DNA of 64,000 nucleotides from Escherichia coli. Lineage in GTDB: Bacteria; Pseudomonadota; Gammaproteobacteria; Enterobacterales; Enterobacteriaceae. Each line of letters starts with the position of its first letter. Position 1 is the first letter of the stretch. Under the pieces are notes generated by a model, which saw only the letters and a list, made by a program, of their open reading frames with translations, was not told the origin of the DNA and searched no databases. A program made the position numbers and the translations under genes. This document shows, piece by piece, positions 62,962-63,192 of the stretch. The DNA is taken from the NCBI RefSeq assembly GCF_003334815.1, contig NZ_QOWO01000021.1. One strand, 5' to 3'.

Positions 62962-63192
62962 ATGCATTTCGCTCAGCGAGTTCGCGCCCTGGTTGTGTTG
63001 AATGGCGTGGCGTTATTGCCTCAATTTGCCTGTAAACAGGGGCTTGCGAACGGTGAACTGGTGCGCCTGTTTGCACCGTGGAGCGGCATACCCAGACCGT
63101 TGTATGCTTTATTTGCGGGGCGAAAGGGGATGCCTGCCATTGCGCGATATTTTATGGATGAGTTAACCACGCGGCTTGCCAACGGGGTCTGA
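62962..63192 (+). pseudogene. yqfE: LysR-family regulator C-terminal fragment (yqfE-like pseudogene)
   Basis: 76-codon ORF resembling a LysR substrate-domain C-terminus only; sits where K-12 carries the yqfE pseudogene between argP and rpiA (from memory). Confidence 0.55.

Follow-up and report, generated by a model that had tools for sequence, protein, structure and literature searches.

LysR regulators are proteins of about 300 amino acids, usually encoded beside a divergently transcribed target gene or operon. The closest described counterpart of the ORF considered here is yqfE (b2915) of Escherichia coli K-12, which is already known as an ORF of that strain and carries the RefSeq label 'LysR substrate-binding domain-containing protein' (WP_000545308.1, for the ORF at 62962-63192), while UniRef names the identical 76-aa protein 'Uncharacterized protein YqfE'; the K-12 curators (EcoGene/EcoCyc) already class it as a pseudogene fragment, the C-terminal end of a LysR-family gene. 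A literature search found no paper describing the parent island of yqfE, its breakpoints, its chimeric start or its decay. What is new here is the identity of the parent gene, the position of the breakpoints, the chimeric nature of codons 1-13 and the decay in the population; yqfE is, with high confidence, a non-functional remnant of a deletion, that is, an ordinary decaying pseudogene.

Comparison of the window, the whole 64-kb stretch of E. coli DNA analysed, with K-12 revealed the same locus without any difference, with the same DNA, a 76-aa product and the neighbours argP and rpiA. In the program-made ORF list the ORF extends over 62962..63192 on the plus strand from an ATG start, and it is divergent from argP (minus strand), whose annotated start at 62820 lies 141 bp away. 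The surrounding segment 62800-63300, used as a 501-bp query, is 100% identical to the K-12 yqfE locus, as the preliminary description had indicated in calling the position conserved with K-12, and it finds a match in 5,426/5,426 complete E. coli genomes. The features between 61927 and 63907 are as follows.

61927..62820, minus strand: argP (iciA), intact, encoding a LysR-family regulator of 297 aa (annotated in RefSeq at the identical K-12 locus; ORF list).
62821..62876, no strand: argP upstream region, collinear with the island-bearing alleles (blastn, base-level comparison).
62877..62920, no strand: 44-bp segment common to every K-12-type remnant allele, flanked by the left boundary and the azoreductase scrap.
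62921..62998, minus strand: 3' scrap of an FMN-dependent NADH-azoreductase gene, residues 182-207 of 209 (tblastn, blastn).
62999..63000, no strand: deletion junction, with 1,346 bp missing by comparison with three intact alleles.
63001..63192, plus strand: 3' end of a LysR regulator gene, residues 236-298 plus stop (tblastn, Pfam).
62962..63192, plus strand: yqfE chimeric ORF, codons 1-13 antisense to azoR and codons 14-76 from LysR.
63208..63213, plus strand: TATAAT, a candidate -10 element of rpiA from its sequence, 35 nt upstream of the rpiA ATG.
63248..63907, plus strand: rpiA, the downstream neighbour in K-12 and in island-bearing genomes (annotation).

Regarding argP itself, the mechanically called ORF (61927-62886, minus strand) runs to 319 aa from an upstream ATG, while the annotated start at 62820 gives 297 aa; the extra 22 codons upstream of 62820 reach into the interval considered here and are annotated in no genome seen.

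Investigation of the coding content of yqfE showed that residues 15-72 match positions 151-208 of the 209 positions of the Pfam LysR_substrate model (E=7e-7), and a tblastn search of the window with the intact LysR regulator of strain EC19 gave 63/63 identical residues at 63001-63189 (E=3e-43). Together these two matches rule out a chance ORF. Codons 14-76 (63001-63189) thus correspond to residues 236-298 of an intact 298-aa regulator. The remaining codons 1-13 (MHFAQRVRALVVL, 62962-63000), including the ATG, are the antisense of a scrap of an azoreductase gene, to which residues 182-207 of AzoR align at 62998-62921 on the minus strand with 21/26 identities (E=7e-12); this scrap amounts to 26 codons and has lost its native stop. 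Judged by these alignments, the yqfE ORF is an accidental chimera of antisense azoR and a LysR tail, and the earlier statement that all 76 codons encode a LysR C-terminus holds for codons 14-76 and fails for the first 13.

Comparison at the nucleotide level with EC19 gave concordant limits. Positions 61900-62876 of the window correspond by blastn to argP and its upstream region in EC19 (L002 912-1888) with 97.6% identity, positions 62942-62999 to the 3' end of the EC19 azoreductase gene (L002 3597-3654) on the opposite strand with 91%, and positions 63000-63300 to the 3' end of the EC19 LysR gene and the start of rpiA with 99%. Homology to the intact alleles stops at about 62876, which marks the left boundary of the deletion, and at 62999/63000 the intact alleles hold the missing 1,346 bp, comprising azoR codons 1-181, the divergent promoter region and LysR codons 1-235; the loss therefore removes the native starts of both azoR and LysR along with the intergenic promoter region. 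No meaningful microhomology was found at this junction in comparison with the three intact alleles. The 44 bp at 62877-62920 were compared with 9-15 intact alleles by short-word blastn and by alignments, both global and local, of the two strands, and no match exceeded shuffled controls. The segment could be either filler DNA or what is left of an ancestral allele outside the sample.

The preliminary description had regarded yqfE as a C-terminal LysR fragment or relic and had proposed looking upstream for a frameshifted N-terminus or an in-frame helix-turn-helix (HTH) region. Searched by tblastn (word size 2, E up to 10), the intact parent protein matched nothing outside its residues 236-298, and residues 1-235, including the HTH, were found in no frame of the 64-kb window, neither frameshifted nor in frame upstream of yqfE; the reading as a fragment is thus sustained. 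Likewise, the remaining parts of the island proteins described below were found by tblastn in no frame near yqfE or across the 64-kb window.

In EC19, argP and rpiA are separated by 3.1 kb of DNA which is absent from K-12 and which contains four genes. Three of them encode a 441-aa ferric-reductase-like membrane flavoprotein, in which Pfam recognises Ferric_reduct together with FAD- and NAD-binding domains, an 86-aa DUF1471 protein of the BhsA/McbA type and a 209-aa FMN-dependent NADH-azoreductase. The fourth, divergent from these three, encodes the intact 298-aa LysR regulator, in which HTH_1 covers residues 4-63 and a full LysR_substrate domain covers residues 88-294 (model positions 2-208). 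Representatives of this parent, namely WP_022646093.1 (EC19), WP_021557186.1 (TUM18530) and that of Escherichia whittamii, adjoin rpiA and have the same C-terminal 63 residues as the remnant. The parent gene, with its 298 codons, lies next to a divergent azoR-DUF1471-ferric-reductase operon; no more than 21% of the gene is left in the window. The intact gene of TUM18530 (L108) is identical to K-12 at 201/201 nt over 63000-63200.

Among curated NCBIfam models, the parent aligns end to end with PRK14997 (168 bits), YafC (149) and AaeR (127), with which it shares the layout of a regulator and a divergent operon, but these scores lie far below the cut-offs (380-470 bits). As it falls below the cut-off of every curated LysR family, the parent represents an uncharacterised LysR subfamily. 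The lost island combines an azoreductase/quinone reductase, a periplasmic stress-type protein of the DUF1471 family and a NOX/FRE-like membrane flavoprotein; from these family names, it is probably a redox or quinone/electrophile stress module.

The preliminary description had attributed yqfE to an ancient duplication or rearrangement. With argP a LysR-family gene lying side by side with yqfE and divergent from it, and with a weak local similarity between YqfE and ArgP (28% identity over 39 aa), a duplication of the adjacent argP might be considered. Against such an origin, other strains carry at this locus a different, intact LysR regulator whose C-terminus the fragment matches with 100% identity, and the similarity of that parent to ArgP is only at the level of the family, the two aligning over a 36-aa stretch only (28%) while the parent scores 53-58 bits on the ArgP NCBIfam models versus 168 bits on PRK14997. 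Furthermore, the fused azoR scrap implies an origin within a LysR/azoR divergent pair. There is thus virtually no chance that yqfE is a relic of an ancient argP duplication; ArgP is a neighbour and not the source, and of the two origins proposed earlier it is rearrangement, specifically deletion, that stands. A tandem paralogue of argP was also considered and rejected, the parent being nearer to other LysR subfamilies than to ArgP.

Regarding the distribution of the deleted genes, the azoR-LysR core was detected in 248/5,426 complete E. coli genomes (~4.6%), always chromosomal and single-copy, with allele classes of 94.6-100% identity, and the whole block at >=80% in 233/5,426; none of the listed genomes among the 248/5,426 matching the deleted core is a K-12 strain. 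The gene order argP – ferric reductase – DUF1471 – azoR <-> LysR – rpiA is present in Escherichia whittamii, Escherichia sp. E1V33 and MOD1-EC7003. The contig scan beyond E. coli yielded four loci, from close relatives only, and is uninformative on Salmonella, Citrobacter and E. albertii. In a Pseudocitrobacter MAG (L010:4553-6894) the order is argP – ferric reductase – DUF1471 <-> LysR – rpiA without azoR, with a LysR protein 72% identical to that of EC19; azoR may have been added later to the module or may have been lost in this MAG.

The minority occurrence of the block, in only ~4.6% of E. coli genomes, and the somewhat divergent argP flank of EC19 (97.6% identity to K-12) would also be in line with the reverse polarity, in which K-12 would show the ancestral state and a minority of strains would have gained the 3.1-kb block by horizontal transfer. 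An insertion, however, cannot create truncated scraps of the island's own two genes at the empty site, the block keeps its synteny in other Escherichia species and, in part, in Pseudocitrobacter, and it shows 94.6-100% allelic diversity within E. coli at one chromosomal copy per genome. No mobile-element genes flank the island, and no integrase or attachment-site features are annotated at its borders. Horizontal insertion is therefore extremely unlikely. That the supposedly empty K-12 site holds truncated pieces of two island genes indicates that the K-12 state was derived by deletion. The K-12-type junction is common to K-12, BL21-type, O121/O157-type and E2348/69 genomes and to all 45 sampled remnant haplotypes, with the exception of E09, in which a later 89-bp deletion took out the junction; such sharing suggests one old event, by now nearly fixed.

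The history of the locus is best reconstructed from these comparisons as follows. The ancestral Escherichia locus was argP – [ferric reductase, DUF1471, azoreductase] <-> LysR – rpiA, the usual pairing of a LysR regulator with a target operon transcribed away from it. On the branch from which most E. coli descend, deletions took the ferric-reductase and DUF1471 genes, 181 of the 209 azoR codons, the shared promoter and LysR codons 1-235, leaving a 26-codon azoR scrap joined to the final 63 LysR codons. An ATG that happened to lie in the antisense azoR scrap, in frame with the LysR tail, then gave rise to the 76-codon ORF called by annotation pipelines, and the fragment is now drifting, eroded by further mutations.

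The decay of the remnant was surveyed in metagenome contigs by an exact 20-mer scan, which gave 95 loci, including 68 remnant-type argP-rpiA intervals and two with the island. The 76-codon ORF is intact in 41/68 of the remnant loci (60%), while ~40% (27/68) fall outside the intact-ORF class, two of the 68 being unscorable. A 45-bp in-frame deletion (63022-63066) is present in 11/68 loci, a change of ATG to TTG together with a stop at codon 5 (the O157/O121-type haplotype) in 9/68, and other lesions in 5/68 (three frameshifts, one nonsense codon and one 21-bp deletion). In E09 the yqfE region has lost 89 bp and 24 bp. The 45-bp deletion is found on at least four flanking haplotypes (h1, h4, h25 and h43) and is flanked by 1-2 bp of microhomology; it has either recurred or spread by recombination.

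A different route to a similar remnant is found in WB61 (L107:1440-1770), the sole such genome among the 5,426, in which a single deletion of ~2.98 kb with different breakpoints begins in the 3' end of the ferric-reductase gene, stops near LysR codon 211, which lies ~77 nt upstream of the K-12-type junction, and leaves a 71-codon ORF from an internal Met that is annotated as a LysR substrate-binding protein. On the evidence of its breakpoints, the WB61 deletion is independent of the K-12-type deletion.

The island itself is decaying even where it is present (L004:2515-3839, L109:805-2129, L113:805-2129, L110:1026-2129; H31 and H81). Several E. coli strains have a shortened ferric-reductase gene or one broken into two CDSs, and the gene is fragmented in E. 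whittamii and E1V33. In MOD1-EC7003 the ferric-reductase gene is truncated, the DUF1471 gene is also shortened and the LysR gene is frameshifted; IS1 insertions occur in the island of two strains, and azoR is shortened in MLI121.

Regarding selection on the remnant, the yqfE genes of K-12 and E2348/69 differ by eight synonymous changes and one non-synonymous change. Purifying selection was considered as a reading of this 8:1 bias and was discarded, the bias being mostly carried by variants shared with intact genes. In a comparison of the LysR-derived 192 nt of the remnant loci with 14 intact alleles in blastn-anchored coordinates, the remnant variants shared with intact genes comprised nine synonymous and one non-synonymous, while the remnant-private variants comprised 11 synonymous and 16 non-synonymous, where neutrality predicts 25-30% synonymous (p=0.11). 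Restricted to private variants found in at least two loci, the counts were eight synonymous and six non-synonymous (p=0.02 versus neutral). In codons 1-13, 4/4 variants are non-synonymous, changing an amino acid or killing the ORF.

The complete identity of the intact TUM18530 gene to K-12 over 63000-63200 shows that the scrap still shares alleles with functional genes, by recombination or recent ancestry. The synonymous bias is mostly inherited or imported from intact genes, and change since the deletion looks close to neutral. The 8:6 excess among the commoner private variants leaves a small residual doubt regarding weak constraint, and it is explained equally well by unsampled intact alleles together with recombination.

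With respect to function, yqfE differs from a LysR regulator in every respect considered. HTH_1 (PF00126) is absent by Pfam from the 76-aa YqfE, the effector domain is incomplete with only positions 151-208 of ~209 LysR_substrate positions, the product is only 76 aa long, and the divergent azoR operon and shared promoter are deleted. It has instead the properties of a gene remnant: it is homologous to part of a gene that relatives keep intact at the orthologous position, its native start codon and promoter are gone, disabling mutations segregate, and private substitutions are near neutral. A consensus scan of 62780-63280 found neither a promoter (full -35/-10 pair) nor a terminator. As the DNA-binding domain, roughly three quarters of the effector-binding domain and the native promoter and start are all lost, nothing in yqfE would be expected to work, and we infer that it is without expression or function.

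As an alternative, the chimeric ORF could be an expressed small protein under weak selection, for instance a piece of a LysR effector domain able to interfere with paralogous LysR regulators, in line with the intact ORF in 41/68 sampled remnant alleles, the mild synonymous excess among the commoner private variants (8:6, p=0.02) and an AGGGA motif 9 nt upstream of the yqfE ATG. The start is lost and codon 5 is a stop throughout the O157/O121-type group, however, and other lineages carry frameshifts, nonsense codons and in-frame deletions; the ~58 of 209 domain positions left make an independent fold unlikely, no promoter-like site is present upstream and the native promoter region is deleted, and the four variants in codons 1-13 all alter an amino acid or destroy the ORF. 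The synonymous excess is itself explained by the 9:1 shared polymorphism and by the intact allele identical to K-12 over the scrap. Finally, yqfE lies within an engineered deletion of the viable reduced-genome strain DGF-298 and is dispensable there (PMC10652928). A selected small protein is very unlikely on this evidence, and yqfE is better regarded as a pseudogene.

There is also only a slight chance that the chimeric ORF is translated in K-12-like strains and weakly kept, either as a titrator of paralogous LysR regulators or as DNA required for rpiA expression. It fits the second of these ideas that the K-12-type and WB61-type deletions both spare the last 63-71 LysR codons. The TATAAT at 63208..63213 is kept in all decay variants, and ERIC-like insertions regenerate the hexamer. 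These insertions consist of a repeat of 126-275 bp placed within TATAAT (~63211/63212) in E2348/69 (L003:1912-2190), E09 (L006) and VCSW7 (L110), the end of which restores the hexamer (…GAGTATA/ATGCG). The repeat is multi-copy, with a median of four places per E. coli genome, and we take its core (…ATCCCCAGGAGCTTACAGAAGTAAGTGACTGGGGTGAGCGA, reverse complement) to match the ERIC/IRU consensus.

As a deletion scar, yqfE matters little in itself; it is a matter of housekeeping, and its tracing called for no more than routine comparative genomics. The result is of use to annotators, in that the CDSs named 'LysR substrate-binding domain-containing protein' or 'hypothetical protein' at this locus in thousands of RefSeq genomes are pseudogene scraps, the first 13 codons of which are not LysR sequence. 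Regarding the biology of the genus, the comparison leads to the recognition of an uncharacterised LysR-controlled redox module, comprising an azoreductase, a DUF1471 protein and a ferric-reductase-like flavoprotein, which was part of the ancestral Escherichia gene set, is still found in ~5% of E. coli and is repeatedly being lost.
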